Source: Bacteroidaceae bacterium (GTDB lineage: Bacteria > Bacteroidota > Bacteroidia > Bacteroidales > Bacteroidaceae). Taken from it: DNA of 64,000 nt. Under the pieces are notes generated by a model, which searched no databases, had not been told where the DNA came from, and saw only the letters and a list, made by a program, of their open reading frames with translations. The stretch is taken from NCBI GenBank assembly GCA_017469525.1, contig JAFUGG010000016.1:77-64076 (forward strand), written 5' to 3'. Made by a program: the position numbers and the translations under genes. Below, one piece after another: positions 3,714 through 62,228 of this stretch (its first letter is position 1; each line of letters begins with the position of its first letter).

Positions 3714-6700
3714 TTATTGAAGGACCACTTTGTGTCCGTTCGTTATGTATATTCCTTTTTGTGGTTTTCCGCTGAGCTGTCGTCCGCTCAGGTCAAAGTA
3801 TCTGCCATCGGACGATGTGCCGTTAGCGAATGGAGTGCGGATGCCGTCGGGATCCTCATTGAAGTAGGAGCCGTCGTAGTACCATACGGGCAGGTGAGAC
3901 CTGTCGGGCACGGGGTGTGCATCCTCGTCGAGCGTCTGCGTCCATGCCTGCTTGTCGTCCGTCCTGCCAGCGTTGAGCTGGTAGCAAAGCTTTCCGCTTG
4001 CCATGTCGAGCGCGTCTGTGCTGATGGCATCGGCAGGTTTCGTGGCCTCCCACTCCGTTAGGTAGTAGGTGTTGGAGAGTATGGCACGGCCGTTGTTGCG
4101 CGAGATGATGTCGCCGCCTTCGGTGCTGATGTTCATATTGCCGAGCATCAGGCAGTTCGAGATGAAACAGGTCTCGGTGGCCCATCCCACGAGTCCGCCG
4201 CAGCTGTTGACGCTTTCGCCGTTGATGGAGCCGGCGAAGATGCAGTCTTGCATCTGGCTGATGTTGCTGCCTCCGCTGGTGAGGCCTGCCAGCCCACCGT
4301 GGGTGCCGTCGCCGACTATGGTTGCGTTGATGTCGATGTAGCTCTGGCAGCGCAGCAGCGTACCGCCCTTGAGGTTGGCGGCAAAGCCGGCGTACTTGCG
4401 GCTGGTGGCAATTGTTCCGCGCAGGATGAGGTCCTTCACTGTGCCAGACAGGTGGCAGAACAGCCCTGCATAGTCAGCGTTGCGGGTCAGGCCGATGGTG
4501 ATGGTGTGCCCGTTTCCGTCGAAGATTCCTTCGTAGTCCTTGCCTTCGCCAATCATCGTGGTGGGGTAGGCGGTGAAATCTATGTCGTCGGTGAGTACAC
4601 CGCAGATGTCGGTGTGGCCGTTCTCCACGAGCTGGGCGAAGGCACGGAGCATCTCGGGCGAGCCGATGAGGTAGTATCCTCGTTCGTCGCGAGGCATGCT
4701 GTCCATGTCAACGTAGCCGCAGTACTGGCACGTTCCTCCTTGGAACTCGTGCTCGTCCTGCCCGTTGCGCGAGGCGTCGTTGGTGAAGCCGTCGATGGAC
4801 GTATAGGGCGAGCCGTCACAATGAACACGGGAGAAACAATAAACGATGCCATGCGATGTGTCCGGCACGGGCGTGATGTCCGAGCCAAGCGTCTGCCTCC
4901 ACGATGTGCTGCCGGGTTGTCTGTCTTCGAGCATGAAGCAAGCCTCGCCGTAGGCCAGTTGGCTTTCCGTCAGCATGAATACGTCAGAGCATCCGTTTGC
5001 GGCACCCCAGTCGCCCTGGATATAGTTGTTGACAGAGACGACGTTGTCTGGGTTGCGGGCCAGCACATCGCTGTTGCTCGTGCCAACAGTATAGCTGCTC
5101 GTGACGAGGCAGTTCGATATGTGAGTCGTGCCGTCCGCCCATCCCGACACGCCGGCGCAGCAGCTGGTGCTGCTCCCGAGTATGCTTCCGCTGACGAGAC
5201 ACTCGCGGATGACTGTCCCGCTACGCGATACACCGACGATGCCGCCGTGTGTGCCGTCGCCATTCACCGTGCTGGAGATGCTGACACGGCTCTGGCAGCG
5301 CTCGATGGTAGCGTTCTCCGTGTTGCCGGCAATGCCGCCGGCATACTTTGCAGAGGTCGTTATGGTGCCCGTCGTGGTGAGGTCGTGGACGTACCCCGAT
5401 AGGTAGCAGAACAGTCCGGCATGTTCTGCGTTGCGGCGTTGAGCCAGTTTGATGGTGTGCCCCGCCCCGTCGAACTCGCCCTTGTAGGCGCCGCCTGTAC
5501 CTATCATGACGCCAGGATAGTCCGTGAAATCAATGTCGTCTTTCAGCACGCCGCACAGAGAAAGTTGTCCCGCATTGACCTGCGCCGCAAAGTCCGCCAA
5601 GGCTTCTGCCGAAGCAATCTCTACGGTGTCTGGCATCTCGACGTCCTCCTCCTGGTTGATTATCTCGTCGAGCCACGGGATGCGGTTCTCTACGTATTCC
5701 TTTATCCACCCCACCTCGACCTCATACGAGCCGCCGGCCCTCGGATTGACCTGTATCAGCTGGTTCAGGATAGGCCATCGCATGAAGTTGAGCCGCTGCG
5801 ACTGCAAGAGCTCGTTGGCTGTCGAGTCGATATAGGCAGTGAGGCTCTCTGCCGTGACATCCCTTTCCGCCCGTGCCTCGTTCCACATTGCGGCCATAGA
5901 GTCGCGCAGAGCTTGGTCGGTGAACAGCCTTTTGAGAAAGGCCGCCGAATTGCCTGCGCCACCCTTGGAGAGCGAGAGGAAGTTGCCGAGATTGTTAATG
6001 GGGAAGTAGCGATTGTCGTTGTCGAAGGCATTGTCAAAGTCCCAGACTGGACCGACATGGAAGTGGTCGTCACCTCGTTCCTTGGTCAGGTAGCAGCTCC
6101 AGAAAGCGTCGGGATTGCCGGCTAGCTCTTCCGAAAGGAAGTACTGAACAAGGCTCCTCTCGTCGAGCCTCGTGCGGAAACCGACGTCTGGGTCGCTGAA
6201 GTTCGAAGACAAAATGCTTGCCTCCATCTGATTAAACTCGCTGCGTATGTATGCAGCCTGCTCCGTTGTGATGTCATCTTCGCCGGGGCTCTTGATGGTA
6301 ACAGGGTTACCTGCGGCGCTGGTGAACCATGAGACCTCTCGGTCAGCATATCCGTCAAGCTCGAGCAGGTAGCCGCCCGTGAGGAATTCGCCTTCCGTAT
6401 CGTAGGGTGTCATCTCGGTGATGTCGATACGGTTCCTGTCTACTGTCAGCTGGTCGGTGAGCTGATAGCAGCCACGATACTCGCCGTTGACGATGACATC
6501 CACAGGCTTGCTCCACGGCACATAGTCCATGCCGATGCGACGAGCTATCTCGAATGCCACGAGGTTGCGCATCAAGGTCTTGTCGTCATAGTTATTGATG
6601 AGTGTCCACTTCCTGGCTTTTGCAGGGGATCGCATCGTCGAACCTTTGAACAAGCGCGACGAGGTGTCGAGTTTGATGCGGTAAGGCTTCTTGGGATGTG

Positions 6701-8255
6701 CCATCGAAGCGTTGCCTCGAAGACGCGTCGTGCCCGTCTCCTCCTGTATCATTGTGCCGTCGGCATAGATGAAAGTGATGGACGAGGTGATGTCGTTGAC
6801 CTTGTCATACGGCTCGACATTATCGACAGTCCTGAAGGAAACGGTCGGGAGATTAGTCAGCTGGTAGAACTGCGAGTCGTCGCCCTCTCCTGCATGGCCA
6901 TAGAACTCAACCTCCGCAACGTTGCATCGTCCATCGGCCGGGCCGACGTAGCGAACGTAGCGGAAGCCTCTCGATACATTCACATCGGCATAGCTCATCT
7001 CGCCAATCGTTCCTTCCTTATCTATAATATATAAAGGAACGGCATCCATGAAGTCGGGGCTGTTGGCTCCCTCAAAGATGGCCAGGAGCATTCGCCTTGG
7101 TCCGAGACCATCATTGCGAGGCGACCATCCGAGACGCGTGATGATGTGCGGCTCACCGAGGTCAAGGCCTACCCACGTCCTGCTACGTTCATAGGAGGCA
7201 AAGAATGTGGAGAGGTCCCCGTCGAAGGCGTTGGCAGCGGTGTTGACCGTCGTGCTTGCCTGCCCTGTCGAATAGTCCACGCTCAGCTCTGTGCCTATGA
7301 CATTTCCGAGGAGCAACTCGTCTTGAGCGCTCATCCTTGCCGAAAAGCAAGGCGTCATCAAGCAAAGGAGCAGAGCCAGAGGCAATGCTTTGCTTGCCGG
7401 AGGGAGTTTTGTCTCTTGCTTCAAACCACAGAATGGGCAGTAATGTGCATCGAAGGGTAGGGGCGAGCCGCATTCCGGGCAAGTGTCTTCCTTGCGTTTC
7501 GTCTTATGGTCGTGCACCATCTGTGCGCTGACGATGCCTGTCGGGACAGCCATGATGGTGTAGCCCATCAGCATGACTATCATGCAGAGGACTCTCCCGA
7601 GGGTCGTTGCCGGAGCGATGTCGCCGTAGCCCACCGTCGTCATCGTCACGACGGCCCAGTAGATGCTCGTCGGGATGTCGGTGAAGGGAGTGCCCGGGAT
7701 GTTGCCTTCCACCATATACATGAGGGTTCCCATGCTGATGACCATGATGACCATGAAGAGGAAGAAGACGCCAATCTTCGGGGCGCTGATGATGAGCGAA
7801 CGCATCAGCAGGTCGCCCTCTTGCAGGAAGCTGAAGAGCTTAAACACGCGGAAGACGCGAATGAGGCGGAAGGTTCGCACTATCATCAGGTAGCGAACGG
7901 GACCGAATATCCAGCCGATGTATAGCGGCAAGGTGCTCAGCAGGTCAATGATTCCGAAGAAGCTCAAGGCATACTCGCGTGGCTTGTCGGAACAGTAAAG
8001 GCGACAAAGGTACTCGAGCGTAAAGAAGAACGTGAAGACGTACTCCAGTATGGTGAACACCAACTTAGCCGTCGGCGGCATCGTCTGCAGGCTTTCCAGT
8101 ACGACAACCAGTATGCTTGCGACTATGCAGCAGAGAAGCGTGACATCAAACGTCTTTCCGAGAGGTGTGTCGCTCTGGAAGATGATGACGCGCAACTTCT
8201 CCCTAAGCGCTTCATTTCGCATGGCTTTCTGCCAAAACCTTCGGATGGTGTTCAT
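3714..8255 (-). CDS. 1513-aa in-frame fusion: voltage-gated K+ channel, zinc ribbon, signal-like segment, discoidin (F5/8 type C) domain, CotH kinase-like domain, two GLUG-motif modules and a T9SS C-terminal sorting domain
   Basis: Single uninterrupted ORF. It contains an S4-like RTFRLIRVFRVFKLF segment and the selectivity filter TTVGYGDI, followed by CPECG..CPFCG. The next stretch, KALPLALLLCLMTPCFSARMSAQ, looks like a signal peptide. CotH-like motifs (YRIKLD, GPVWDFDNAF) follow, then two roughly 300-aa paralogous modules (DIDFT.YP...AGLFC.LSG...DGTHGG). The tail GIYITNGHKVVLQ is typical of T9SS sorting domains. Confidence 0.75.
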   Translation of the reverse strand: MNTIRRFWQKAMRNEALREKLRVIIFQSDTPLGKTFDVTLLCCIVASILVVVLESLQTMPPTAKLVFTILEYVFTFFFTLEYLCRLYCSDKPREYALSFFGIIDLLSTLPLYIGWIFGPVRYLMIVRTFRLIRVFRVFKLFSFLQEGDLLMRSLIISAPKIGVFFLFMVIMVISMGTLMYMVEGNIPGTPFTDIPTSIYWAVVTMTTVGYGDIAPATTLGRVLCMIVMLMGYTIMAVPTGIVSAQMVHDHKTKRKEDTCPECGSPLPFDAHYCPFCGLKQETKLPPASKALPLALLLCLMTPCFSARMSAQDELLLGNVIGTELSVDYSTGQASTTVNTAANAFDGDLSTFFASYERSRTWVGLDLGEPHIITRLGWSPRNDGLGPRRMLLAIFEGANSPDFMDAVPLYIIDKEGTIGEMSYADVNVSRGFRYVRYVGPADGRCNVAEVEFYGHAGEGDDSQFYQLTNLPTVSFRTVDNVEPYDKVNDITSSITFIYADGTMIQEETGTTRLRGNASMAHPKKPYRIKLDTSSRLFKGSTMRSPAKARKWTLINNYDDKTLMRNLVAFEIARRIGMDYVPWSKPVDVIVNGEYRGCYQLTDQLTVDRNRIDITEMTPYDTEGEFLTGGYLLELDGYADREVSWFTSAAGNPVTIKSPGEDDITTEQAAYIRSEFNQMEASILSSNFSDPDVGFRTRLDERSLVQYFLSEELAGNPDAFWSCYLTKERGDDHFHVGPVWDFDNAFDNDNRYFPINNLGNFLSLSKGGAGNSAAFLKRLFTDQALRDSMAAMWNEARAERDVTAESLTAYIDSTANELLQSQRLNFMRWPILNQLIQVNPRAGGSYEVEVGWIKEYVENRIPWLDEIINQEEDVEMPDTVEIASAEALADFAAQVNAGQLSLCGVLKDDIDFTDYPGVMIGTGGAYKGEFDGAGHTIKLAQRRNAEHAGLFCYLSGYVHDLTTTGTITTSAKYAGGIAGNTENATIERCQSRVSISSTVNGDGTHGGIVGVSRSGTVIRECLVSGSILGSSTSCCAGVSGWADGTTHISNCLVTSSYTVGTSNSDVLARNPDNVVSVNNYIQGDWGAANGCSDVFMLTESQLAYGEACFMLEDRQPGSTSWRQTLGSDITPVPDTSHGIVYCFSRVHCDGSPYTSIDGFTNDASRNGQDEHEFQGGTCQYCGYVDMDSMPRDERGYYLIGSPEMLRAFAQLVENGHTDICGVLTDDIDFTAYPTTMIGEGKDYEGIFDGNGHTITIGLTRNADYAGLFCHLSGTVKDLILRGTIATSRKYAGFAANLKGGTLLRCQSYIDINATIVGDGTHGGLAGLTSGGSNISQMQDCIFAGSINGESVNSCGGLVGWATETCFISNCLMLGNMNISTEGGDIISRNNGRAILSNTYYLTEWEATKPADAISTDALDMASGKLCYQLNAGRTDDKQAWTQTLDEDAHPVPDRSHLPVWYYDGSYFNEDPDGIRTPFANGTSSDGRYFDLSGRQLSGKPQKGIYITNGHKVVLQ

Positions 8256-45666: not shown

Positions 45667-46830
45667 ATGAAACAATTCAAGAACGACGGCAGGTTGAAGC
45701 TGCTGATTATCGTGGGCACGCGGCCTGAAATCATACGTCTGGCTGCCGTCATCAACAAGTGTCGGCAGTATTTCGACTGCCTTTTGGCGCACACAGGACA
45801 GAACTACGACTACAATCTCAATGGGGTTTTCTTTAAGGACCTCAAGCTTCAGGACCCCGACATCTACATGGAAGCTGTGGGCAATGACCTGGGCGAGACG
45901 ATGGGAAACATCATTGCCAAGAGCTATCAGCTCATGGTTGAAGTGAAGCCTGAAGCTGTTCTGGTGCTCGGAGACACCAATTCCTGCCTCTCCGTCATCG
46001 GTGCCAAGCGCCTGCACATCCCCATCTTCCACATGGAAGCAGGCAACCGCTGCAAGGACGAATGCCTTCCCGAAGAAACGAACCGCCGCATTGTGGACAT
46101 CATTTCTGACGTCAACATGGCCTACAGCGAGCATGCCCGCCGCTATCTTGCCGACACTGGTCTGCCAAAGGAACGCACTTATGTGACGGGAAGCCCCATG
46201 GCCGAGGTGCTTCACAACAACTTAAAGGAGATAGAAGCAAGCGACATCCACAAGCGCTTAGGCCTAGAGAAAGGCAAATACATCCTGCTTTCCGCCCACA
46301 GGGAAGAGAACATCGACACGGAGAAGAACTTTCTCTCGCTCTTCAATGCCATCAATAAGATGGCGGAGAAATACGACATGCCCATCCTCTACAGCTGTCA
46401 TCCACGCTCCCGAAAGCGCTTGGAGCAGTCGGGCTTTCAGCTCGACAGGCGCGTCATACAGCATGAACCCTTGGGCTTCCATGACTACAACTGCCTTCAG
46501 ATGAATGCATTTGCCGTGGTGAGCGACAGCGGAACCCTTCCGGAGGAAAGCAGTTTCTTCACCAGCATCGGGCATCCTTTTCCTGCCGTCTGCATCCGCA
46601 CCAGTACCGAGCGCCCCGAGGCCTTGGACAAAGGCTGTTTCGTGCTGAGCGGCATCGACACGAAGGGCCTGCTGCAGAGCGTTGATGTGGCAGTGAGCCT
46701 CATCCGCGACGGTCTGCCCGGCATCCCCGTGCCCGACTATGTCGATGAGAATGTCAGCACCAAGGTTGTCCGCATCATCCAGAGCTACGTTGGCGTCGTG
46801 AACAAAATGGTCTGGAGGAAAGAGCAATGA
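45667..46830 (+). CDS. fnlC: UDP-N-acetylglucosamine 2-epimerase, FnlC/CapG type
   Basis: LLIIVGTRPEIIRLAAVI...HTGQNYDYNLNGVFFKDL is typical of the non-hydrolysing FnlC/Cap5G epimerases. It overlaps the next gene by 4 nt. Confidence 0.7.
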   Translation: MKQFKNDGRLKLLIIVGTRPEIIRLAAVINKCRQYFDCLLAHTGQNYDYNLNGVFFKDLKLQDPDIYMEAVGNDLGETMGNIIAKSYQLMVEVKPEAVLVLGDTNSCLSVIGAKRLHIPIFHMEAGNRCKDECLPEETNRRIVDIISDVNMAYSEHARRYLADTGLPKERTYVTGSPMAEVLHNNLKEIEASDIHKRLGLEKGKYILLSAHREENIDTEKNFLSLFNAINKMAEKYDMPILYSCHPRSRKRLEQSGFQLDRRVIQHEPLGFHDYNCLQMNAFAVVSDSGTLPEESSFFTSIGHPFPAVCIRTSTERPEALDKGCFVLSGIDTKGLLQSVDVAVSLIRDGLPGIPVPDYVDENVSTKVVRIIQSYVGVVNKMVWRKEQ

Positions 46831-48102: not shown

Positions 48103-48474
48103 ATGACGGACAACGAGCTGACTTACGAGATTAGAGGTGCTATTTTCGATGTATGTAATGAACTAGGTCCAGGTTTACTGGAGTCAGTTTATGAAGAAGC
48201 CTTGGCTTTCGAGCTCAAAGGAAGAGGGTTGAAAGTAGAACGTCAGGTTGAGGTTCCTATTCGGTACAAAGGAAATGAGCTCAAAACCCCTCTTCGACTT
48301 GATTTGCTCATCGAGAATCAAATTGTCGTAGAGTTAAAGTCAGTTGAAGAGATGAAGCCGGTGTTTGCAAAACAACTGCTTACATATTTAAGGCTTCTTA
48401 ATAAACGTGTTGGATTATTGGTCAATTTTTCGTCAAACAATATTCGTGAGGGAATAAGGCGAATAGTGAATTAG
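48103..48474 (+). CDS. GxxExxY-family protein (PD-(D/E)xK-like, PDDEXK_3)
   Basis: The 123-aa sequence has GPGLLESVYEEAL (the GxxExxY motif) and DLLIENQIVVELKSV (D...E.K). Confidence 0.85.
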   Translation: MTDNELTYEIRGAIFDVCNELGPGLLESVYEEALAFELKGRGLKVERQVEVPIRYKGNELKTPLRLDLLIENQIVVELKSVEEMKPVFAKQLLTYLRLLNKRVGLLVNFSSNNIREGIRRIVN

Positions 48475-51823: not shown

Positions 51824-51889
51824 ACAGATTTCTGTGATATCTGTGCTTTCTGTGAGACGAAACGAAATAAACAATAACGATAACGATAA
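51824..51889 (+). repeat. CTGTGA word repeats plus a wecB leader copy (AACGAAATAAACAATAACGATAACGATAA)
   Basis: ACAGATTTCTGTGATATCTGTGCTTTCTGTGAGAC resembles 48523-48551. The leader at 51861-51889 is repeated at 62228-62257 with a one-base difference. Confidence 0.75.
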
Positions 51890-52411
51890 ACGCAAGCTGG
51901 TGCTGATAACCGGTCACCGCCGCGAGAACTTCGGCGAAGGCTTCATTTCGATGGTCACGGCAATGAAAGACCTCAGCGAGAAATACCCCGACGTGGACTT
52001 CGTCTATCCGATGCACCTCAATCCCAACGTGCGCAAGCCCATCCACGAGGTGTTCGGCGAAGACCTCACCAAGTACAGCAACTTCTTCTTCATTGAGCCG
52101 CTGCAGTACCTGGGGTTCGTCTATCTGATGGAGAAGTCCACCGTCGTCCTCACCGACAGCGGCGGCATCCAGGAAGAGGCCCCCGGCCTGGGCAAGCCCG
52201 TCCTCGTGATGCGTGACACCACCGAGCGTCCCGAAGCCTTCAAGAGCGGCACCGTCCACCTCGTCGGCACCAACCACGACCTCATCGTCAGCGAAGTCAG
52301 CACCCTCCTCGACGACCCGCAGGCCTACGTGCGTATGTCCAAGGCCGTCAACCCTACGGCGACGGCAAAGCCTGCAGCCGCATCGTCCGGGCGCTCAAGG
52401 CTGCGAATTAG
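51888..52411 (+). pseudogene. wecB: UDP-GlcNAc 2-epimerase (WecB) remnant: N-terminal half deleted and a 3' frameshift
   Basis: It starts at KRKLVLITGHRRENFGEG, which is mid-protein, directly after the leader. It contains DSGGIQEEAPGLGKPVLVMRDTTERPE. At 52353-52357 one base is missing, so NPYGDGKACSRIVRALKAAN-stop is read in another frame and ends at 52411. Confidence 0.8.
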
Positions 52412-52639
52412 CGAGAGGAGAGCCGAACTTGTTTGAGCTATCCCGAGCGTGAGCAGACTCGACAATAGTCAAGGACGAGCAGGTGGATAGATACGAAGTG
52501 AAATAGGACCTCCTTACATCCTCCTTGGGTGTTCCTTAAGTTTTCCTATAGTCTCCTTTGAACTACAAGCAACATAATTGGTGAGAAGTTAAGAAAAATA
52601 AAAGTTGCTAACGGATGCGATTTTGTTGCCGCAAAACGT

Positions 52640-52647: not shown

Positions 52648-52677
52648 TAGAAAAACATATATTATAGTTTAAGTGTT

Positions 52678-53904
52678 ATGCTGATAACCGGAATCGAAAT
52701 ACACAACTTTAGAGGCATCAGAGAATTGTCTATATTGGATTTTGACCGCCATGCAAATCTCTTTGTTGGAAAGAACGGTGCGGGCAAGTCTTCGCTCCTT
52801 GATGCCATATCCAATGTAATGTCCTGGTTTGTGGCGCGTATGCTTTCAACTACGGGTCGCGGACGAGACATTGCCGTCAACGATATAGGCTTCCGTTCCA
52901 GGGAAGGTTCTGTTATCAGATTACAGATAGACGGCGGCGAGTGGAGCAGTCTATACCGCAGCAAGGAGATGAAGAAGGATGGAAAGTCGGATTTGTCACC
53001 ACTAAATGCCGTAGTAAAGACCTTACGTGAGAATATTGAAGATAATCCACGTACGTCAGTACCAATATACGTTCATTATGGTGTTGGACGAGTAGTGGCG
53101 GACATCCCTCTGCGAATCAGGAAGAATCCCAGACGGGATGTTACCAATGCATACGTTGAAGCACTGGAGAGTAGTGCTTCATTTCGTGACTTTTTCGCAT
53201 GGTTCCGTGAACAGGAAGACCTGGAAAACGAACATATCCGTGAAAACCCGCATTATCGTGACCGTGGGATGGAGGCCATCCGCGATGCAATGTCAAAGAT
53301 ATTCTCGGAATTCAGTGAGATGCGTGTGCGCCGCAGTCCTCGCTCCATACAGATAAAAAAGGAAGGGGAAGTACTGCGACTTGAGCAGTTGTCCGACGGG
53401 GAGAAATGCTATATCGCCTTGGTGTGCGATTTGACAAGGCGTCTTACCATTGCGAATCCGGGACTTGAGAACCCACTGGACGGGGCCGGTGTCGTACTCA
53501 TCGACGAGATAGACCTACACCTCCACCCTGAGTGGCAAATGGATGTGGTGTCGAGGCTTATTACCACATTCCGTAATTGTCAGTTCTTTGTGACGACTCA
53601 CTCCCCGATAGTAGCGTCCGACGTGAAAGGACGCGTTTTTGTCATGGAAGATGGTCAGGCATACCCGCGTGTCACTTATGGCAAGGATAGTGAACAGATT
53701 CTCGCTTCCGCATTCGGTGTGGCAAATCCCAGAAACAAGACTGTTCAAGGTATGATAGACAATGCTTACAAGGCCATACGTGAAGGTAGTATGGAAGTTG
53801 CGAAGGACATTCTGGCGGAAATCGTATCTGCTGTTGGACAGGATGATCCAGTTGTGAGTGGTATAAAGTTGGAAATGGCTCGCAAGAGTAGGGGAGGAAG
53901 ATGA
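52678..53904 (+). CDS. ABC/SMC-like AAA ATPase, PtuA-like (Septu-type)
   Basis: Walker A GKNGAGKSS, signature-like LSDGEK, Walker B VVLIDEIDLHLHP and H-loop TTHSP. An HNH partner gene follows. Confidence 0.8.
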   Translation: MLITGIEIHNFRGIRELSILDFDRHANLFVGKNGAGKSSLLDAISNVMSWFVARMLSTTGRGRDIAVNDIGFRSREGSVIRLQIDGGEWSSLYRSKEMKKDGKSDLSPLNAVVKTLRENIEDNPRTSVPIYVHYGVGRVVADIPLRIRKNPRRDVTNAYVEALESSASFRDFFAWFREQEDLENEHIRENPHYRDRGMEAIRDAMSKIFSEFSEMRVRRSPRSIQIKKEGEVLRLEQLSDGEKCYIALVCDLTRRLTIANPGLENPLDGAGVVLIDEIDLHLHPEWQMDVVSRLITTFRNCQFFVTTHSPIVASDVKGRVFVMEDGQAYPRVTYGKDSEQILASAFGVANPRNKTVQGMIDNAYKAIREGSMEVAKDILAEIVSAVGQDDPVVSGIKLEMARKSRGGR

Positions 53905-54533
53905 GAACGATAATTAAAAATGAGGCACCAGCCTGCCTCTCCGAAGCAGAGAAGAAGGGATGGAAATGGGACGAGTTTGTTCTAAATGACCGTCTTGGCT
54001 ATCAGACCTGTCGTCAGCAGGCGTATGACGAGCAATCCGGTGTATGTGCTTACACCGAGTTGCCACTTGATTCGGCGAGGTCAACCATCCATCTCGACCA
54101 TTTCAGGCGGAAAGGCATTTATCAGCGTCTCCGGTTCGAGTGGAACAACCTGTTTGCCGCTGTCAAGGACAACCGTTTCGGGTCGGATTATAAAGACAAT
54201 ATCGTCAAAAGCAACAACGAGCAAAAGATATACAACGTAATTCTCAGCCCGTTAGTGCCTCAACTTCAACGGTATTTCCACTATGCTACCAATGGCGAGG
54301 TAGAGCCTTCATCAGAATTGTCAGATGATGATAAGGAAAGGGCAAAGGCTACCATCGATATCTTTCATTTGAACGAAAGTGAATTGGTCAGTCGTCGTAG
54401 AACTATGATGGTGCAGATTTCCACTTACCATGATTTACCCGAGGAAACCATCCGCCAGAGTTTTGTCGGCGCAGGTTTTCCGTCGGTCGTGGATCAGGAG
54501 GTTGGTTTTATGATTTTAGGACATGAAGCGTAA
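53901..54533 (+). CDS. HNH-type nuclease, PtuB-like (TIGR02646-like)
   Basis: CAYTE...IHLDHFRRK...WNNLFAAV...N..K is an HNH core arrangement. The ATGA overlap with the ATPase gene suggests translational coupling. Confidence 0.7.
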   Translation: MRTIIKNEAPACLSEAEKKGWKWDEFVLNDRLGYQTCRQQAYDEQSGVCAYTELPLDSARSTIHLDHFRRKGIYQRLRFEWNNLFAAVKDNRFGSDYKDNIVKSNNEQKIYNVILSPLVPQLQRYFHYATNGEVEPSSELSDDDKERAKATIDIFHLNESELVSRRRTMMVQISTYHDLPEETIRQSFVGAGFPSVVDQEVGFMILGHEA

Positions 54534-56544
54534 ATTATCCACAAGCAGCAGAAGCGTACTTAATTCCGGATTGACCGAGGATTATAAAAAGGCGATTGCT
54601 GAGTATATCTGGAACGGATTCGATGCCGGTGCAACCTGTGTTGAGATTCGTTACACTGCCAATCCGCTAGGCGGAGTAGATGATTTGTGGGTTATCGACA
54701 ATGGCAGTGGTATCAACTATGGTACTCTTGATCTGACATTCGGAGCTTTTCTTGACTCTAATAAGATACAGTCCTTTCAGCGTTCTTCTGAGGTGAGAGG
54801 CAGAAAAGGAAAAGGGCGTTTTTCATACAATGTCATATCGGGCGGTGCTTCATGGCAAACAAAGTACAAGGATGACGAGGGAGTTCTCAAACAATATGAA
54901 ATTAAAATTTATTCATCTGACAGATCCGAGTATGATGCATCAGAGCCAGAATCTGTGCTTGTAGCGGAAGGACAGGAAACAGGCACTGCCGTTCATTTCC
55001 TTGATATGCGTTCTAATCTTGTCGAGGATGATTTGACAAGCGATTCTTTCTGCAATTACTTGTCAAGCGAGTTCGCATGGTTCTTGGAATTGAACAAGTC
55101 AAAAGGATATGCTATCAAGATTGAAGGTGTTGTTTTGGATTATCGGAATCTGATAGGAGAGACGGAAGAACAAACTATAGAAATTGGAGAAGAATCCTTT
55201 AGAATCAACTTTATCCGCTGGTCGCGGAAAATAGGTGATAAGTACTATTATTACCTGATGAATTCCAATCTACGGGAAGTTTGTAAGGTCTTGACCTCAT
55301 TTAATAACAAGTCCACAACTTTCCATCATAGCGTTTACGTCACCTCTCAGTATTTTAACAAGTTCGAGTGGGATAAGGAACCTGGTGCTCGTCTTGATGG
55401 ACTCTACAATCAGAGCCATGAGGCTTATGAGGCTTATAAGACTCTGATGAAACGCCTGCGTGCTTATCTGTCTAAGAAAGAGAAGGAGTATATACGAGCA
55501 GTTGGAGCAGCCCAACTGATAGCACAGTATGAGAAAGATGGCATTCTGCCTAAGTTTTCCGATGACAAATATGGAAAGGCACGAAAAAAAGATTTGGTGG
55601 AAGCCATACAAGGTATCTACGCTGTGCAACCCAAGATTTTCTTGAAACTTGCTACCGAACAATGCAAAACTATGGTGGGTTTTTTGAACCTGCTTCTTGA
55701 CTCTAATGAGCGAAACAACGTAATAACTATCATTGAAAGTGTTGTTCACTTAACGCCAGAGGAACGGGAAGAGTTGGCTGCCACTTTGCGTACTACAACG
55801 CTAAGTCGTATCAATTCTGCTATCAGTCTGGTTAAAAATCGCCTTATTGTTATTGAGGGACTTAAGAAGTTGGTTACGGACAACGAGAAGTTCACAACAG
55901 AACGTGACCATATTCAGAAGATAATTGAAGAGAATTACTGGCTGTTTGGAGAACAGTTTAATCTTGTAACCGCAGACAAGCCCTTCACAGCAGCTCTAAT
56001 GGAATTTACTTACTTACTGGATGGTAAAGTTGAGAAAGGAAGTTTCACGGCAGAAGATGCTCGTCGCAGACCGGATATCTTCATATGTAGAGGACAGGCT
56101 TTGCCAGGTTACCAATATTCTTCTTTCCTTGAAGAGCAGATTATAGTGGAGTTGAAGAGACCTTCCGTTGTGATCGGAACCACGCAGTTGAGGCAGATAC
56201 AAGACTACCGTGATATTATTCTGAAAGAGCCGACTTTTAATTCTCAGATGCGGAGATGGAAGTTCATAGTTGTGGGGAAAGAAGTTGATGAATCTGTAAA
56301 AAACGAGTACAAATCATTTGCCGACAAAAACCGGCCAATGCTTGTTCATTATAGAGAGAATTTTGAAATATATGCCATGACATGGGATGATGTGTTCGTG
56401 ACATTCGAGCACCGTGAGAATTTTATCCTTGAGAAACTCCAATTTGACAAGCAAATGATTCATAATGAAGTTGAGGCTTATGCTAAGTCAAGAGAGGGTT
56501 CTGATGCATTAACGAAGGACATCTTGAGTTTGAATACCAAATAA
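54523..56544 (+). CDS. GHKL (Bergerat-fold) ATPase fused to a C-terminal PD-(D/E)xK nuclease (Shedu/DUF4263-like)
   Basis: N-terminal motifs are EYIWNGFDAGAT (ExxxNxxDA), VIDNGSGI (DxGxG) and GRKGKGRFS (Gly-rich lid). The C-terminal motifs are NYWLFGEQF, RRPDIFIC and IIVELKRP (D...ExK). It overlaps the HNH gene by 11 nt. Confidence 0.7.
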   Translation: MKRKLSTSSRSVLNSGLTEDYKKAIAEYIWNGFDAGATCVEIRYTANPLGGVDDLWVIDNGSGINYGTLDLTFGAFLDSNKIQSFQRSSEVRGRKGKGRFSYNVISGGASWQTKYKDDEGVLKQYEIKIYSSDRSEYDASEPESVLVAEGQETGTAVHFLDMRSNLVEDDLTSDSFCNYLSSEFAWFLELNKSKGYAIKIEGVVLDYRNLIGETEEQTIEIGEESFRINFIRWSRKIGDKYYYYLMNSNLREVCKVLTSFNNKSTTFHHSVYVTSQYFNKFEWDKEPGARLDGLYNQSHEAYEAYKTLMKRLRAYLSKKEKEYIRAVGAAQLIAQYEKDGILPKFSDDKYGKARKKDLVEAIQGIYAVQPKIFLKLATEQCKTMVGFLNLLLDSNERNNVITIIESVVHLTPEEREELAATLRTTTLSRINSAISLVKNRLIVIEGLKKLVTDNEKFTTERDHIQKIIEENYWLFGEQFNLVTADKPFTAALMEFTYLLDGKVEKGSFTAEDARRRPDIFICRGQALPGYQYSSFLEEQIIVELKRPSVVIGTTQLRQIQDYRDIILKEPTFNSQMRRWKFIVVGKEVDESVKNEYKSFADKNRPMLVHYRENFEIYAMTWDDVFVTFEHRENFILEKLQFDKQMIHNEVEAYAKSREGSDALTKDILSLNTK

Positions 56545-56561
56545 TTTACTTTGATATCGCA

Positions 56562-57023
56562 ATGTCTCCCGAGGATATAATAGCATTACTTTCAGTACTA
56601 TTATCAGCCATTGTTGCTGTTGCTGGCATTGTCATTGCGCGACAGTCGGAGAAATTGCGGACAATGAGAAAACAACTCTCCGAGAAGAAGTGTGAAGCCT
56701 ATGCAGATGCGGTGGAATTATTCTATTCTTTATTGAAGGATTCAAAATCTCATCGTGTAACTAACAACGACAAGATGATGCAGAAGATGATTGATATCAA
56801 ACGAGACATCTTTATGTATGGTTCTGATAAGGTGTTTAGAGCGTTCAATACTTGGTTACTGTACACAACAAAGAATAACGATAAAGCTCAGTTTGCTGCT
56901 TTTTTGGATTTCGTTTTGGAGATGCGAAAGGACTTGTGTAATAACAAAACAAGATTGACCAAACAAGATATACTCCTGAACCTTACTCAAAGCGAAGAAG
57001 AAGTTAGAAAACTAAATAATTAA
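56562..57023 (+). CDS. Small membrane-anchored helical protein (unknown function)
   Basis: 153 aa with one N-terminal TM segment (IIALLSVLLSAIVAVAGIVIA) and a helical cytoplasmic part. It starts 17 nt after the previous stop. Confidence 0.55.
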   Translation: MSPEDIIALLSVLLSAIVAVAGIVIARQSEKLRTMRKQLSEKKCEAYADAVELFYSLLKDSKSHRVTNNDKMMQKMIDIKRDIFMYGSDKVFRAFNTWLLYTTKNNDKAQFAAFLDFVLEMRKDLCNNKTRLTKQDILLNLTQSEEEVRKLNN

Positions 57024-57025
57024 GT

Positions 57026-57430
57026 ATGTCTATGCTCACTACCTTTCAACAACAATACATAGCCCAGTGGCATGATGGGTTCATGAGTTACGTCGGAAGT
57101 TTGCTCGGGGTGATTGCCGGACTTGTGACAAGACCTGAGGCGACGCGCGAAGATAAGGAGGCGCTGGAAGCTGTAAAGATGATGCTGACAGGCAAGGATG
57201 CTGAGGATGTGGAGCGGGATTTGTCCTCAGGCATCATTAAGAAGAGTACACTGGATAAGATAGAAAAGATCAATGGGGATTTGGTTGACACTTGCCTGGC
57301 GCATATTCAGATGAATCCCTTGGTACGGGAGTTCTGTAAGCAAATGATGCATATCCAGATAACTCACAATAGAAGAGCTGAAGCGATGAGGCTACAGGCA
57401 TTGCATATACCGATTATTGAGAATCTGTAG
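57026..57430 (+). CDS. Small hypothetical protein (unknown function)
   Basis: 134 aa with one hydrophobic segment (YVGSLLGVIAGLV). It starts 2 nt after the previous stop and is the last gene of the AT-rich operon. Confidence 0.5.
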   Translation: MSMLTTFQQQYIAQWHDGFMSYVGSLLGVIAGLVTRPEATREDKEALEAVKMMLTGKDAEDVERDLSSGIIKKSTLDKIEKINGDLVDTCLAHIQMNPLVREFCKQMMHIQITHNRRAEAMRLQALHIPIIENL

Positions 57431-57686
57431 ATAAAAATCACTTGACGAGTGATCAATTGCTGTTTATAGGCGAAAACTGGCATCAACTTCCTTGTTTTGA
57501 ACAAGTTTACAGTCCTCTGGCGAAAAGGTCGGTTGTGACGGTTATATAATGGGTGAAGCGAGTGGCTTCGCTAATAAGTTCATTGGTGGATGCAGCCCGA
57601 GTTCAGGCCAGTTTGGGCTGCCCTCTTTTCTCGAGCGGGAAAGAGGTTCTCGAGAAAAAACAGAAAAAAACGAAAAAAATTGGCTT

Positions 57687-57790: not shown

Positions 57791-58342
57791 ATGTTAGACC
57801 GTTTGAAACAACTGGAAAAACTTGACCGCGTTACCGAGGCGGAGTGGCGGGAGGCGCTATCGGCGCTGACCGCCTGGATTGCCTGGCGGCTCCGGGGCAA
57901 AACGAGCTACGGAGCCCATTCGGAAGAGGAGTTGGGGATGCCCGCTGCGGATTATTACATAGGCGAGGCCGTGATGCGGCTCTTTGAGTGCCGCTGGGAA
58001 TGGCAGGACCGCTTCTCTCTGAAGGATCAACTTATCAGGATGGTAGGCAGCCTTATCGACACGCAGCTGAAGGCCTATCAGCTGAAGGTGGAAGAGGGTC
58101 GGTGCTCTACGGGCGAAGTGGATGCGTCCACGCTCTCCGACAGCCTGCCCGACGATGACTACACACTGGACGTGGCCTATGAGATAGCGCAAGCTAAAGT
58201 GAAGGGCGACAATGAGCTGGAGTCTTTCCTCGATGCTATCAGGACGTTCAATGATTTCAAAGCTATCAGCTCGCATTTAAACATCACAATTGATCAAGTC
58301 TATAACCTGCAGAAAAGGCTTATGCGGAGACTTGGAAAGTAA
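57791..58342 (+). CDS. Hypothetical protein with C-terminal HTH (sigma-70 region-4-like)
   Basis: 183 aa. The C-terminus FKAISSHLNITIDQVYNLQKRLMRRL resembles a region-4 helix-turn-helix. I could not recognise a region-2 motif. Confidence 0.5.
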   Translation: MLDRLKQLEKLDRVTEAEWREALSALTAWIAWRLRGKTSYGAHSEEELGMPAADYYIGEAVMRLFECRWEWQDRFSLKDQLIRMVGSLIDTQLKAYQLKVEEGRCSTGEVDASTLSDSLPDDDYTLDVAYEIAQAKVKGDNELESFLDAIRTFNDFKAISSHLNITIDQVYNLQKRLMRRLGK

Positions 58343-58352
58343 ATCAAGAATA

Positions 58353-58712
58353 ATGAACTTATTAGATAAAATCAACGCCCTGCGCGTTGAATCGATAACC
58401 CCAGAGGAAATCAAGGAGACTCTGGGAGTGAGCCAGGACGAACAGGTAGAGAAGATGATGAAGACGGTGCGCCGTCTCAAGTTCAAGGCCAAGGCCGAGC
58501 AAGGCCGTCTCAAGAGCGAACGGGCCGCGAAGCTGCGGCGCATCATCTCCGGCAGGGGCGAGAACTCGGTGCGGCTGCGCTCAAGGATCCAGTCACGCTA
58601 TCCGGCTATGCAGTTCCGTAATCTGGAGCAACTGACCGACGAGCAGCTGGCGCAAATCGCCGACGACCTGGAAATCTTGGAAATCCTGGAGAGCGAGAAT
58701 GAGCAGGGGTAG
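58353..58712 (+). CDS. Small charged helical protein (possible partner or regulator of the ImmA-like peptidase)
   Basis: 119 aa, K/R/E-rich with an acidic tail. Its 3' end overlaps the ImmA-like gene by 14 nt. Confidence 0.5.
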   Translation: MNLLDKINALRVESITPEEIKETLGVSQDEQVEKMMKTVRRLKFKAKAEQGRLKSERAAKLRRIISGRGENSVRLRSRIQSRYPAMQFRNLEQLTDEQLAQIADDLEILEILESENEQG

Positions 58713-59562
58713 CGAGGCGGCCCAGCAAATGCTGGACGAATTCGGCTTAGACAGCGTCATAGACGAGGATCTGTGTGACCTCGTCTATGCACGCGGTCTG
58801 GTGTTTCAGGAAGTGCCGCTGTCGGGATGCGAGGGCAGGATTATTTACAGCCCCTCGGGACAGACAGCGGTGGTGACAGTGAACAGCAACACCCGCTACC
58901 GGCCCCGCAAGCGCTTCTCCATTGCGCACGAGCTGGGACACTATGAACTCAAGCATAACAAGATACATTGTGAAAACGAAGGTACGCTGGACTGCTACCG
59001 CAAAGGCCATCAGGAGGCCGAGGCCAATGAGTTTGCCAGCGAACTGCTGATGCCTGCCGCCTTGTTCGACAAGGCCGTGCAGGGACGGTGCTTCTCTCCT
59101 GCGTTGGTTGAGGAGGTGGCCGAGCAGTTCGGGACGAGCGTTTCCAGCGTCGTCTATCGCTACCTGATGAGCGGCCCCGTGCCTGTGGCAGCGGTCTATT
59201 CCTACTGCGGCAAGGTAGTGTGGTGGCGCAAGTCACAGGGGATGCAGCGGCGGATGATCGACTGGACCGGCCGCGAGGTGCCGCACAATTCCGTGAGCGA
59301 GGAGTGGTTTCAGGACCATACGGTCTATGCCACCAACGATATTCAGGACGTTGACCTGAATGTCTGGTTCGACTTGGGAATGTATCGGACCTATACGCAT
59401 ACCAGTAGCAAACGCTTCGGTATGGAACAGATGGGCATCCGCGGATGGGATAGCTGGGATGAGGCCAAAGAAGATACCTCCACAGGAGAGCCGATGTGTC
59501 ACGAGCACTGCTTCGTGTCCCGCGACTTCGGGAGCGCACTGGCGGTCATCTGGGAGGACTGA
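58699..59562 (+). CDS. ImmA/IrrE-family zinc metallopeptidase
   Basis: FSIAHELGHYELKH (HExxH) and EANEFASELLMP, as in ImmA/IrrE (DUF955) proteins. Confidence 0.75.
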   Translation: MSRGSEAAQQMLDEFGLDSVIDEDLCDLVYARGLVFQEVPLSGCEGRIIYSPSGQTAVVTVNSNTRYRPRKRFSIAHELGHYELKHNKIHCENEGTLDCYRKGHQEAEANEFASELLMPAALFDKAVQGRCFSPALVEEVAEQFGTSVSSVVYRYLMSGPVPVAAVYSYCGKVVWWRKSQGMQRRMIDWTGREVPHNSVSEEWFQDHTVYATNDIQDVDLNVWFDLGMYRTYTHTSSKRFGMEQMGIRGWDSWDEAKEDTSTGEPMCHEHCFVSRDFGSALAVIWED

Positions 59563-59617
59563 GAACGAAAACGTTAACGATAACGAAAGCGAAAACCTTT
59601 GTACAGAAAATGCCATA

Positions 59618-59685
59618 GGTGGAGAAAACCAGACTCTGGGCGGTTAATATAGGAGTGAAGCAGCTTCAAAAACAAGTATTAACCG
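59618..59685 (+). repeat. Copy B of the GGCGGTTAATA element plus a hairpin
   Basis: GGTGGAGAAAACCAGACTCTGGGCGGTTAATA. CGGTTAATA (59641-59649) pairs with TATTAACCG (59677-59685). It lies upstream of the ATG at 59709. Confidence 0.7.
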
Positions 59686-59708
59686 TTTAAAAATAGGAGG
59701 AAACAACT

Positions 59709-60755
59709 ATGGCAAAGATTAGTGGAATCAACACGAAGATCAGTGGTCAGGTGGGTGAGTATTTGTTCCGCCAGACCAAGTATGGAACGATTGTGAGCGA
59801 GGCTCCGGTGCGTAGCTCGACGCCGCGCCGCAGCCAGCTGCAGATGAACACGCGGACGCAGTGGGCGAACCTGGGGGCGATCTACCGCCAGTTCGACGAT
59901 ATGCTGAAGCGGGGGTTCGAGAGTCTGCCGACGGGGATGAGCGTGTACAACGCTTTCGTGCAGGCGAACCTGGGAGTGGTGAAGGTGTATATCACCAAGA
60001 CGATGCGGCTGAACGGCGGCTCGGTGTTGGCACCTTACCAGATTACCCGCGGCACCCTGCCCAGCATCCCGATGGGCCTCAGCACCGACGGCCTGCTGAT
60101 GAGCGGACTGAGCGTAGGCTCGCTGAGCATCGACGCGGCCACCACCATCGGGGCTTTCAGCGAGGCCATCCTCGCGGGTAACTTCGGCTGGCAGGAAGGC
60201 GACCAGCTTTCGTTCTTCCACGGGGTGCAGACAGTGGACCAGGTGACGGGCATCCCCCGCGCCACCATCACCGGCTATCGCGTGGTCATCAACACCGCCG
60301 ACGAGACGCCCCTGTGGGATGTCGTCAATCCCATCGGATTCAGCACCGTGGCCTCGGGCAGCGCAGGCATCAACGTCATCGCCACCAGCCAGGCTATCCA
60401 GAGCGGCGCCGGTGTGTGGGTACACAGCCGCGAGACCGACAGCGGCCTGAAGGTAAGCACCCAGTTCTTCTATGTGGAGAACGCAGCCCTAGCCACCTAC
60501 CAGAGCAGCGCTGCCCAGGTCGCCAGCGCCAACAGCTACGGAGGCATCAACACCAGCCAGGTGTTCCTGCAGCCCAGTGTGAGCGGCAGCAACGGCGTTG
60601 CTAACGTTAACCTTAACGCTAACGATAACCAGAGCGGCAGCGGCTCGGGCACCGATGGAAACGATAACCCTAACGAAAACCAGGGCGGAACTGGTGGAAA
60701 CACGGGTGGTAATACCGGCGGTGACGGTGGCGACGGCGACGATATGAGCGACTAA
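59709..60755 (+). CDS. Hypothetical protein with G/N/D-rich low-complexity tail (possibly DUF6266-like)
   Basis: 348 aa, N-terminus MAKISGINTKISGQVGEYLFRQTKYGTIV, tail NVNLNANDNQSGSGSGTDGNDNPNENQGGTGGNTGGNTGGDGGDGDD. The family assignment rests on my recollection only. Confidence 0.5.
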   Translation: MAKISGINTKISGQVGEYLFRQTKYGTIVSEAPVRSSTPRRSQLQMNTRTQWANLGAIYRQFDDMLKRGFESLPTGMSVYNAFVQANLGVVKVYITKTMRLNGGSVLAPYQITRGTLPSIPMGLSTDGLLMSGLSVGSLSIDAATTIGAFSEAILAGNFGWQEGDQLSFFHGVQTVDQVTGIPRATITGYRVVINTADETPLWDVVNPIGFSTVASGSAGINVIATSQAIQSGAGVWVHSRETDSGLKVSTQFFYVENAALATYQSSAAQVASANSYGGINTSQVFLQPSVSGSNGVANVNLNANDNQSGSGSGTDGNDNPNENQGGTGGNTGGNTGGDGGDGDDMSD

Positions 60756-60850
60756 ACTTCATCTTTCAGAGCGGGTGGGTGGCAACCCTGCCTCCCGCCT
60801 CCCTCTGAATCTTTAGACAGTAAATGTTGAACAGTAAACGCTAAAGGAAG

Positions 60851-61321
60851 ATGAAGTACTTTACGATTAGCGAGATGCTTCACAGCCCGACGGCTGTGGC
60901 TCGCAAGATATGGAACGGCTGTGGCCGCACCGAGGAGGACAACCTCACGGCCCTCATCGAGAACGTGTTGGAACCCACGCGTGAACGCTATGGCAAGGCC
61001 ATCCACGTGAGCAGCGGCTTCCGCTGTCCGCAGCTGAACAGCCTCATCCACGGCGCCACCCAGAGCCAGCACCTTCGTGGCGAAGCCGCTGACATCTATA
61101 CCGACGCAGGCCCGGTGGGCAACCTTGAGGTGGCACGCCTTATCATCGCCTCCGGTTGCTTCGACCAGGTCATCCTGGAGAACGTCCCCGGCAACCAGCT
61201 CCTGCCTCAGTGGATTCACGTCAGCTGGAAGCGCCTCGGAGCCAACCGCCGGGAGATACGCAAGAAGGTCATCGGTAGCAATAGCTACCCTGTGCTGACG
61301 CGAAAGGAGGTGGGCCTATGA
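60851..61321 (+). CDS. Peptidase M15 (zinc D-Ala-D-Ala carboxypeptidase / phage endolysin-like)
   Basis: SGFRCPQLN, the H-x6-D motif (HLRGEAAD) and WIHVSW (third zinc ligand). Confidence 0.75.
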   Translation: MKYFTISEMLHSPTAVARKIWNGCGRTEEDNLTALIENVLEPTRERYGKAIHVSSGFRCPQLNSLIHGATQSQHLRGEAADIYTDAGPVGNLEVARLIIASGCFDQVILENVPGNQLLPQWIHVSWKRLGANRREIRKKVIGSNSYPVLTRKEVGL

Positions 61322-61635
61322 CACTGGATTGGACCAACATTATCCTCGCCGTGCTGACCCTCATCGGAGGCTGCGGATGGATTGTGAACCACCGCAAGTA
61401 CCGTCAGGAAGTACGGAGCCTTCAGGCCGACAACCGGCAGAAGGATATGAACCTGAGTAAGGATTATGTGACCGAGTGGCGCACCTACATCGCTGAGCCC
61501 TTGCAGCGTGAGGTGAACGAGCTGCGGCAGGAAGTGGCCGAGCTGCGGTATGCGATACAGCGTATTAGCGACTGTGCTCATCGCGCTAAGTGTCCTGTGC
61601 TGGAGCAGTTGCAGCGTCAGCCGGAGGGCGAGTAG
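61318..61635 (+). CDS. i-spanin-like protein (N-terminal TM segment plus coiled coil)
   Basis: The TM segment IILAVLTLIGGCGWIV is followed by a heptad-like region, [20 protein letters not shown]. It overlaps the endolysin-like gene by 4 nt. Confidence 0.55.
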   Translation: MTLDWTNIILAVLTLIGGCGWIVNHRKYRQEVRSLQADNRQKDMNLSKDYVTEWRTYIAEPLQREVNELRQEVAELRYAIQRISDCAHRAKCPVLEQLQRQPEGE

Positions 61636-62044
61636 CAGCGAGCGGAGCCTTCGCACGGAGACAGTGACAAGGGATACGGTCTGGCAGCAAGTGGTGGTGG
61701 CCGTCCACGACACCCTTTGCGAGGTGACCACCATCACCCTCCAGCAGAACGACCAGGGCGACACCCTCAAGCTGCTGCAGGTCACAGACCGCACACGCGC
61801 CTCCCGTAGCAGCGACCTACGAGAGAATAAGAAACGAACGGAAGTAAGAGTTGATACCGTGTATGTAGAGAAGCAGTCAGACAACACCGTGGCCGTTGCG
61901 GGCCCTGGAGTAACGGTAGACAAAGACGGAACATTAACCGTGAACCGTTCACCTTTAACCTTTATGAAGTGGCTTTTTGCCATACTATGTGCATTGATAG
62001 TATTGATAATAACCATTAAAGTCTGTTTGCGGAAGGCTCTCTGA
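61550..62044 (+). CDS. Lipoprotein overlapping the previous gene out of frame (o-spanin-like, with an extra C-terminal TM segment)
   Basis: Lipobox context [22 protein letters not shown]. It overlaps the 3' end of 61318-61635 by 86 nt. The C-terminal TM segment is [16 protein letters not shown]. Confidence 0.5.
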
Positions 62045-62090
62045 CGAGGGCCTCCGCAGACTGCGTTTACGAGATAAAACACGTTTTAAC

Positions 62091-62228
62091 ATGAAAGGAA
62101 TAGTACTCGCCGGAGGCTCCGGCACGCGGCTTTACCCGATTACCAAGGGCGTTAGCAAACAGTTGTTGCCCATCTACGACAAGCCGATGGTGTATTACCC
62201 CAGCAGTGCGCTGATGCTGGCAGAATAA
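62091..62228 (+). pseudogene. rfbA: Glucose-1-phosphate thymidylyltransferase (RfbA/RmlA), 5' fragment of 45 codons
   Basis: [37 protein letters not shown] is the canonical RmlA N-terminus. The reading frame stops where the wecB leader copy begins. Confidence 0.85.

Follow-up and report, generated by a model that had tools for sequence, protein, structure and literature searches.

A GHKL ATPase-nuclease gene of the paraMORC3/type 1D Shedu architecture behind Septu genes in a mosaic hot spot of a Bacteroidaceae bacterium

Genes at the Locus and Conserved Motifs

The window analyzed in this study is a 64,000-nt stretch of contig JAFUGG010000016.1 from the assembly GCA_017469525.1 of a Bacteroidaceae bacterium, and the coordinates given here are window positions unless a locus is named. 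On the forward strand (+), a complete open reading frame (ORF) at 54523..56544 encodes a protein of 673 amino acid residues in which a GHKL ATPase is joined to a PD-(D/E)xK nuclease, an architecture known as paraMORC3 or type 1D Shedu. This gene, referred to here as the GHKL-Shedu gene, follows the two genes of a Septu system, ptuA and ptuB. The former (52678..53904, +) encodes an ABC-type ATPase of 408 residues (PADLOC PDLC00271, E = 4.8e-126; Pfam AAA_21/AAA_15) and the latter (53901..54533, +) an HNH-type partner of 210 residues (PADLOC PDLC00326, E = 2.3e-50). The G+C (GC) content of the GHKL-Shedu gene is 41%, compared with 51–59% in the neighboring capsule and phage-like genes. The gene is a further member of the known GHKL-Shedu type, whose domain fusion was described in 2008, classified in 2023 and validated in 2025.

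An earlier note on this DNA, made from the sequence alone, had quoted six motifs from the ORF, and all of them are present. Residues 27–38 of the product are EYIWNGFDAGAT, residues 59–64 are DNGSGI and residues 93–101 are GRKGKGRFS, while the C-terminal portion contains NYWLFGEQF at residues 471–479, RRPDIFIC at residues 515–522 and IIVELKRP at residues 540–547. In addition, the protein possesses a fourth GHKL motif, TGT, at residues 153–155 and a QxxxY motif at Q558...Y562. Conservation was assessed across 71 aligned family members with 25–53% identity to the query; an alignment of 84 sequences gave a similar picture. N31, G61, G96, G98, R99, E477, K545, and Y562 were invariant among the 71 members, and E27, D59, G63, G154, T155, E460, D518, E543, and Q558 were conserved in at least 90% of them. 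Given that the motif residues are conserved across relatives of such low identity, the six motifs are not chance matches.

The family is large. At E ≤ 1e-3, 1194 homologs of the protein were found in a database clustered at 90%, of which the listed ones were ~670 residues long. For the nuclease domain alone, clustering at 50% gave 1068 representatives, mostly ~660–680 residues long with the domain at ~400–650. Plasmids of Deinococcus, Sinorhizobium, Salmonella, and Streptomyces also carried full-length relatives, and a Paenibacillus plasmid carried a match covering three quarters of the length. The database names of ten distant cluster representatives were only "ATP-binding protein" or "hypothetical protein".

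N-Terminal ATPase, Middle Domain and Helical Region

The GHKL (Bergerat-fold) ATP-binding domain comprises residues 1 to ~165 (54523..55017, +), as delimited by the match to HATPase_c_3, the family profile and residue conservation. Its motif I consists of E27...N31, motif II of D59xGxG63, motif III of G93xxGxG98 and motif IV of T153-G-T155. Pfam HATPase_c_3 matched residues 22–136 with an E-value of 2.8e-14 and a score above its cut-off, and also matched all 71 relatives. A search of PDB sequences with the family profile identified the ATP-binding domains of PMS1, MLH1, MutL, and TopoVI-B (E = 1.7e-7 to 7e-5), and in a search of PDB sequences with the full protein the matches were confined to the GHKL core. 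An AlphaFold2 model of the full-length protein had a mean predicted local distance difference test (pLDDT) score of 79.5. The Foldseek matches of this model were Hsp90, TRAP1, GyrB, MLH1, and MORC2, with E-values from 1.5e-11 to 2e-9 and a probability of 1.00. Both the Pfam match and these structural matches support the Bergerat-fold GHKL ATPase that the earlier note had proposed for the N-terminus.

The Foldseek alignments spanned 313–454 columns and thus reached the N and M domains of Hsp90/TRAP1, MLH1, and the 43K portion of GyrB. The corresponding beta-rich middle domain of the window protein (55018..55422, +; residues ~166–300) was delimited by the strands of the model, which lie at 197–274, and by the Foldseek coverage. 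It sits where related GHKL proteins carry an S5/transducer or "N24" domain, and its position in the model suggests that it may be an S5 domain. A helical region (55423..55887, +; residues ~301–455), delimited by DSSP on the model, joins the middle domain to the nuclease. The DSSP helices were at residues 302–339, 349–368, 378–391, 397–408, 412–424, and 427–453, and the lowest pLDDT values of the full model (56–64) were around residues 390–430. The two domains had been thought to be separated by a helical linker of ~300 residues. As beta-strands continue to residue 274 and helices occupy only about 302–475, the supposed linker instead comprises a folded middle domain rich in beta-strands and, after it, ~170 helical residues.

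C-Terminal Nuclease Domain

The PD-(D/E)xK nuclease domain (55888..56442, +; residues ~456–640) was delimited by a separate structural model, by Foldseek and by the alignment of relatives to Pfam SduA_C. Its E-D-ExK signature consists of E460/E477, D518, E543, and K545, to which Q558xxxY562 is added. Because Foldseek results of the whole model were dominated by GHKL matches, a separate model of residues 440–673 was made, which had a pLDDT of 85.6 and a predicted template modeling (pTM) score of 0.82. Its highest-ranking PDB matches were FokI (E = 3.4e-3), EndoMS (E = 7.6e-3) and SduA of Escherichia coli (8ps5, E = 1.4e-2), followed by Cap4, Bse634I, Avs3, SgrAI, and McrC; none of all the matches had an E-value below 1e-3. 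The possibility that the C-terminus does not have a restriction-endonuclease (RE) fold, named in the earlier note as what would speak against its reading, was thus examined, and the top matches were PD-(D/E)xK nucleases. Together with the E-D-ExK and QxxxY motifs, this ranking supports an RE fold.

Comparison with Described GHKL-Nuclease and Shedu Proteins

The earlier note had regarded the fusion of the two domains as unusual. It had already been described as paraMORC3 in 2008, as type 1D Shedu in 2023 and as VcSduA in 2025. The paraMORC3 family was defined by the combination of a GHKL and an S5 domain with a C-terminal RE-fold domain that contains E-D-ExK, and it is prevalent in Proteobacteria and Bacteroidetes; a reviewer reply in the same paper covers standalone versions without linked restriction-modification (R-M) genes (Iyer, Abhiman and Aravind, Biol Direct 2008, PMC2292703). 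The window protein shares the GHKL domain and the RE-fold domain with this signature, together with a putative S5 module, its membership resting on architecture and motifs. Shedu homologs with a GHKL fold (HATPase_c_3) and a linked middle domain were subsequently listed among those that carry an enzymatic domain at the N-terminus (Gu et al., 2023, preprint).

The GHKL-Shedu organization is also that of VcSduA (A1552VC_00276) from the WASA lineage of Vibrio cholerae, and VcSduA-like proteins, formerly called paraMORC3, are type I-D Shedu (Adams et al., Nat Microbiol 2025, PMC12137116). VcSduA alone protects E. coli and V. cholerae. Its defense is abolished by either E27A in the ATPase or K557A in the nuclease, so that both activities are required. 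The published VcSduA model is dimeric, with a clamp-like middle domain, and its ATPase was proposed to control the nuclease (PMC12137116). The window protein and VcSduA share the domain order, in which an N-terminal GHKL domain carrying motifs I–IV is followed by a middle domain and then by a PD-(D/E)xK nuclease at the C-terminus. The catalytic glutamate is residue 27 of either protein, the nuclease lysine is at 545 in the window protein and at 557 in VcSduA, and both are single-gene systems in defense islands. They differ in that VcSduA comes from Vibrio and the window protein from Bacteroidales, which belong to another phylum, and in that VcSduA adjoins GrwAB whereas the window gene abuts ptuAB. 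Moreover, a clear DUF4263 annotation was reported for VcSduA.

Canonical SduA of Bacillus cereus and E. coli (DUF4263/PF14082; 8ps5) has the same PD-(D/E)xK core after a helical lead-in. Different from the window protein with its GHKL head, however, canonical SduA is ~400 residues long, lacks an ATPase and is reported to be a tetramer that senses DNA ends. A tetramer model was not supported for VcSduA (PMC12137116).

Pairing with PtuAB and Mosaic Structure of the Locus

The coupling of the GHKL-Shedu gene to PtuAB, raised in the earlier note, is found in a narrow clade only. Among 58 species-level loci from species-representative genomes, none had PtuAB beside the homolog; no PtuB match and only one weak PtuA-like fragment were found there. 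No cluster of neighbors in these loci had more than four members, and each Pfam family was limited to at most 3 of 89 upstream and 2 of 87 downstream neighbors of homologs. What recurred around the homologs was defense-island content, such as HsdM, AbiEii, GmrSD, Schlafen, TIR, and AbiJ.

The upstream genes also varied among close relatives of the window protein. PtuAB preceded the homolog that was 96% identical (P0001). The homolog with 91% identity (P0006) was preceded by Mfa2-like genes, with neither PtuAB nor anything related to defense. KwaA-KwaB (Kiwa) was upstream of the homolog with 84% identity (P0015), AAA_21 and DUF4276 genes were upstream of the one with 81% (P0021) and a PtuAB only 34–37% identical to that of the window was upstream of the one with 79% (P0024). 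The relatives of PtuA behaved similarly. The PtuA that was 89% identical was followed by capsule-type biosynthesis genes, including a glycosyltransferase gene, and the one that was 73% identical by an Mrr_cat-nSTAND3 gene, both without a Shedu gene. The PtuAB-Shedu linkage of the window was confined to loci whose PtuA and Shedu proteins share at least 92% and at least 93% identity, respectively, with those of the window. It is thus missing from close relatives of either partner as well as from the 58 species-level loci, and a literature search found no description of a Septu-Shedu coupling.

The gene behind the 73% identical PtuA (L081:7947-10202) encodes an Avs-like protein of 751 residues with Mrr_cat and nSTAND3 domains and occupies the slot after ptuB. 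Hence, the position behind ptuAB accepts different single-gene nuclease systems. Upstream of the homolog with 81% identity (L071:358-4547), genes with PfkB/nucleoside deoxyribosyltransferase and QueC domains precede the AAA_21 ATPase and DUF4276 genes; these genes may form a DNA-modification or defense cluster.

Downstream of the GHKL-Shedu gene are two small genes without family matches, dn1 (56562-57023, +; 153 residues) and dn2 (57026-57430, +; 134 residues). Comparison of the loci at the DNA level placed the homology breakpoints at gene borders. The ptuAB module (52676-54514) was common to loci L078 and L081, both of which lack a Shedu gene. DNA of the Shedu ORF (54522-56549) was common to L060, L068, L071, and L074, and that of dn1-dn2 (56562-57360) to L090. 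On the left, the flank at 51894-52398, which covers part of a truncated UDP-GlcNAc 2-epimerase gene (51834..52436, +; Pfam Epimerase_2, 194-residue product), matched the left flank of L085–L087 with 90% identity. On the right, the flank at 57046-57646 was 88% identical in the same loci; it includes dn2 and a terminator-like hairpin of 12 pairs followed by a T-run (57592..57621, +). The cargo between these shared flanks in L085–L087 was entirely different, consisting of AAA_23 and three other genes. The locus is therefore a mosaic in which ptuAB, the Shedu gene and dn1-dn2 are combined between the conserved flanks of a hot spot that adjoins a capsule locus. The five-gene block from ptuA to dn2 moves together in a narrow clade only. 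As such, the locus is a clean natural case of gene-by-gene cassette shuffling in a capsule-locus defense hot spot.

Discussion

The most likely reading of our results is that the window gene encodes a stand-alone anti-phage nuclease of the GHKL-Shedu/paraMORC3 type that was placed behind Septu by cassette shuffling and that is functionally independent of Septu. In this interpretation, the Shedu gene lies behind Septu because separate defense cassettes were shuffled together in one hot spot, and in the narrow clade it is probably co-transcribed with ptuAB.

By analogy with VcSduA and with GHKL proteins of the MutL, MORC, and Hsp90 types, binding of ATP at the Bergerat fold (E27/N31, D59xGxG, G93xxGxG, and T155) would lead to dimerization of two protomers, whose middle domains would then form a clamp around DNA. 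The conformational cycle would license the C-terminal PD-(D/E)xK domains (D518, E543, and K545) to cut invading DNA, and the protein would in this way serve defense in its Bacteroidaceae host. An ATP-gated clamp that controls the nuclease, as suggested in the earlier note, would agree with the proposal published for VcSduA. Given that published model and the equivalent residues E27 and K545 of the window protein, this mechanism is a published hypothesis and not a new one. The abundant clade of GHKL-Shedu proteins in gut or rumen Bacteroidales could serve the biochemistry of ATPase-gated nucleases.

Several observations weigh against a stand-alone Shedu nuclease, some of which concern the Shedu label and others the independence from Septu. 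Pfam SduA_C did not match the window protein at E ≤ 0.1 with the full sequence or at E ≤ 10 with residues 401–673, which distinguishes it from VcSduA. The SduA profile of PADLOC gave only a partial match with an E-value of 0.029 to residues 408–479, which belong to the helical lead-in. A family profile built for the C-terminal domain returned only noise from all PDB sequences, with no Shedu or other nuclease at E ≤ 10. Moreover, 8ps5_A was only third in the Foldseek ranking, with a probability of 0.47, and was no better than FokI or EndoMS. The comparison of VcSduA with the window protein is one of architecture and catalytic positions. Regarding the independence, ptuB reaches 11 nt into the Shedu ORF with its stop codon, the five-gene block is kept at 94% DNA identity in a second context, that of L066, and a divergent PtuAB is also found beside the 79% identical homolog in L074–L076. 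The overlap, the block in L066 and the second PtuAB make some functional linkage possible.

The label can be reached through relatives. Four full-length homologs that are 50–53% identical to the window protein (P0052, P0053, P0073, and P0076) matched SduA_C over positions 5–158 of 159 with their residues 454–619. Their scores were 25.3–27.7 bits, compared with a gathering cut-off of 27. SduA_C reached E ≤ 1e-3 in only 2 of the 71 sampled members, and HSDR_N_2 matched 20 of them. Thus, of the "Shedu-like nuclease tail" proposed earlier, the PD-(D/E)xK fold stands, given the Foldseek matches and the conserved E-D-ExK, and the Shedu part is weak; the assignment of the window protein to Shedu would hold only by transitivity via relatives of ~50% identity. 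Caution is warranted, as the profile matches behind the label are borderline in this branch.

The points that concern Septu could also be explained if PtuA, PtuB and the GHKL-nuclease formed one integrated three-component system, in which the GHKL protein would be a sensor, a regulator or a second effector of Septu and selection would act on the three together. In agreement with such a system, ptuB overlaps the start codon of the Shedu gene and no terminator-like site was found at the ptuA/ptuB or ptuB/Shedu junction, the one strong hairpin following dn2. The block recurs in L059, L077, and L083 as well as in L066, and in L074–L076 a divergent PtuAB (34–37% identical) also precedes the 79% identical homolog. 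We nevertheless regard an integrated system as quite improbable. PtuAB adjoins none of the species-level homologs, the 91% identical homolog without PtuAB shares DNA homology with the window only within the ORF, and the PtuA relatives of 89 and 73% identity precede capsule genes or the Mrr-nSTAND3 gene instead. The partners also diverge discordantly in L074, where PtuA is 34% and Shedu 79% identical to the window copies. Furthermore, VcSduA needs no partner for protection (PMC12137116), and Septu is described, in the PtuA-PtuB complex paper, as a two-gene system. A milder version, in which ptuAB and the GHKL-Shedu gene were welded into one operon in a Bacteroidales clade because they cooperate, also seems unlikely to us. 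If it were true, the HNH nuclease of Septu could make ends or nicks for clamp loading by GHKL-Shedu, or the two systems could back each other up against phage inhibitors, and the independently assembled neighborhood in L074–L076 would be a product of selection for this pairing and not of chance.

Two further readings concern the protein itself. It could be the restriction subunit of a BbrUII/HgiDII-type R-M system whose methyltransferase is encoded elsewhere, and paraMORC families were indeed set mainly in R-M contexts by Iyer et al. (2008, PMC2292703). The profile NF050001 ("BbrUII/HgiDII family restriction enzyme") matched residues 407–610 of the window protein, in the helical lead-in and the nuclease, with an E-value of 6.6e-14, aligned to positions 433–620 of 659, and the overall lengths are comparable; it also matched 16 of the 71 relatives (best E = 3e-20). 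The score of the window protein, however, was 51.4 bits, far below the family cut-off of 550, and a partner methyltransferase is lacking: none was called from ~45.7 to 63 kb of the window. No methylase family recurred among 176 neighbor genes of homologs, and the N6_Mtase found in 3 of 89 upstream neighbors belonged to type I systems in every case. Iyer et al. moreover reported finding no solo R-M system for most species with a standalone paraMORC3 (reviewer reply, PMC2292703). After the scan of the 176 neighbor genes for methyltransferases this reading was rejected, and we consider it very unlikely. A MutL-like or MORC-like housekeeping protein of DNA repair or chromosome organization, rather than an immune protein, is suggested by the MutL models, which were the commonest NCBIfam match (44 of the 71 relatives), and by PMS1/MLH1/MutL as the best PDB sequence matches of the N-terminus. 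MutL, MORC, and Hsp90 share the Bergerat fold and a middle domain with the window protein and are ATP-driven dimerizing clamps, and MutL also has a C-terminal endonuclease. That endonuclease has a metal site, whereas a PD-(D/E)xK fold is found here, and the matches were limited to the ATP-binding core of ~60–180 residues (E = 1e-4 to 1e-8). In addition, the distribution of the gene is patchy, and it travels as a cassette among defense genes, including those of Kiwa, AbiEii, GmrSD, TIR, and Septu. Its GC content differs from that of the surrounding genes, and the homologous architecture of VcSduA is experimentally a phage defense (PMC12137116). A housekeeping role is therefore highly improbable.

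Other Features of the Locus

The hairpin behind dn2 is likely the end of a ptuA-ptuB-Shedu-dn1-dn2 transcription unit. Weaker terminator-like matches were found inside the ptuA and Shedu ORFs, in about the number expected by chance. A scan for sigma-70 promoters, a type of scan that is unsuited to Bacteroidota, was uninformative, with 11 sites compared with 9.2 expected.

By eye, the N-terminus of the dn1 translation contains a hydrophobic stretch that resembles a membrane helix. The dn2 family comprised 174 proteins, whose listed members were ~130 residues long and came from metagenome contigs; the one named source was a metagenome-assembled genome of Bacteroidaceae. The dn2 gene was the last gene on the same strand in several unrelated defense-type operons, mostly beside capsule-type genes, and the dn1-dn2 pair was also found after an unrelated operon with DNA_methylase and HATPase_c_3 (839 residues) genes. 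The pair is not specific to Shedu or Septu and could be a boundary mark of the hot spot or a portable accessory module.

In L074 (180-2705), and also in L075 and L076, PtuA (34% identical to the window copy) and PtuB (37%) are followed by a gene for 223 residues and then by the Shedu gene of 79% identity. The C-terminal half of the 223-residue protein of L074 is 37% identical to dn2, and L074–L076 hold the same four gene families as the window in another order. A role for dn2 as a third Septu gene was considered from the dn2-like domain after this divergent PtuAB and rejected, because dn2 ends several unrelated operons. In L066, the five-gene block, in a context of 96% identity, is followed by genes for a SMODS nucleotidyltransferase and a SLATT_4 protein (5704-7113), a candidate defense pair.

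A full-length copy of the UDP-GlcNAc 2-epimerase gene is located at 45667-46830, 5 kb upstream of the truncated fragment in the left flank, which itself immediately precedes ptuA. The presence of the fragment and the full copy suggests exchange of cargo by recombination between duplicated capsule genes. Among the capsule genes, a PDDEXK_3 gene for 123 residues is found at 48103-48474, and the order Epimerase_2, Epimerase, PDDEXK_3 recurs in L087. Downstream of the island is a phage-like segment (57791-62100) with a GC content of ~59%. It contains genes for a Peptidase_M78 (IrrE-like) protein (58699-59562), a 348-residue protein with a Gly/Asn-rich tail (59709-60755) and a Peptidase_M15_3 protein (60851-61321), followed by small ORFs. 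The segment may represent the remains of a prophage, including a lysis cassette.

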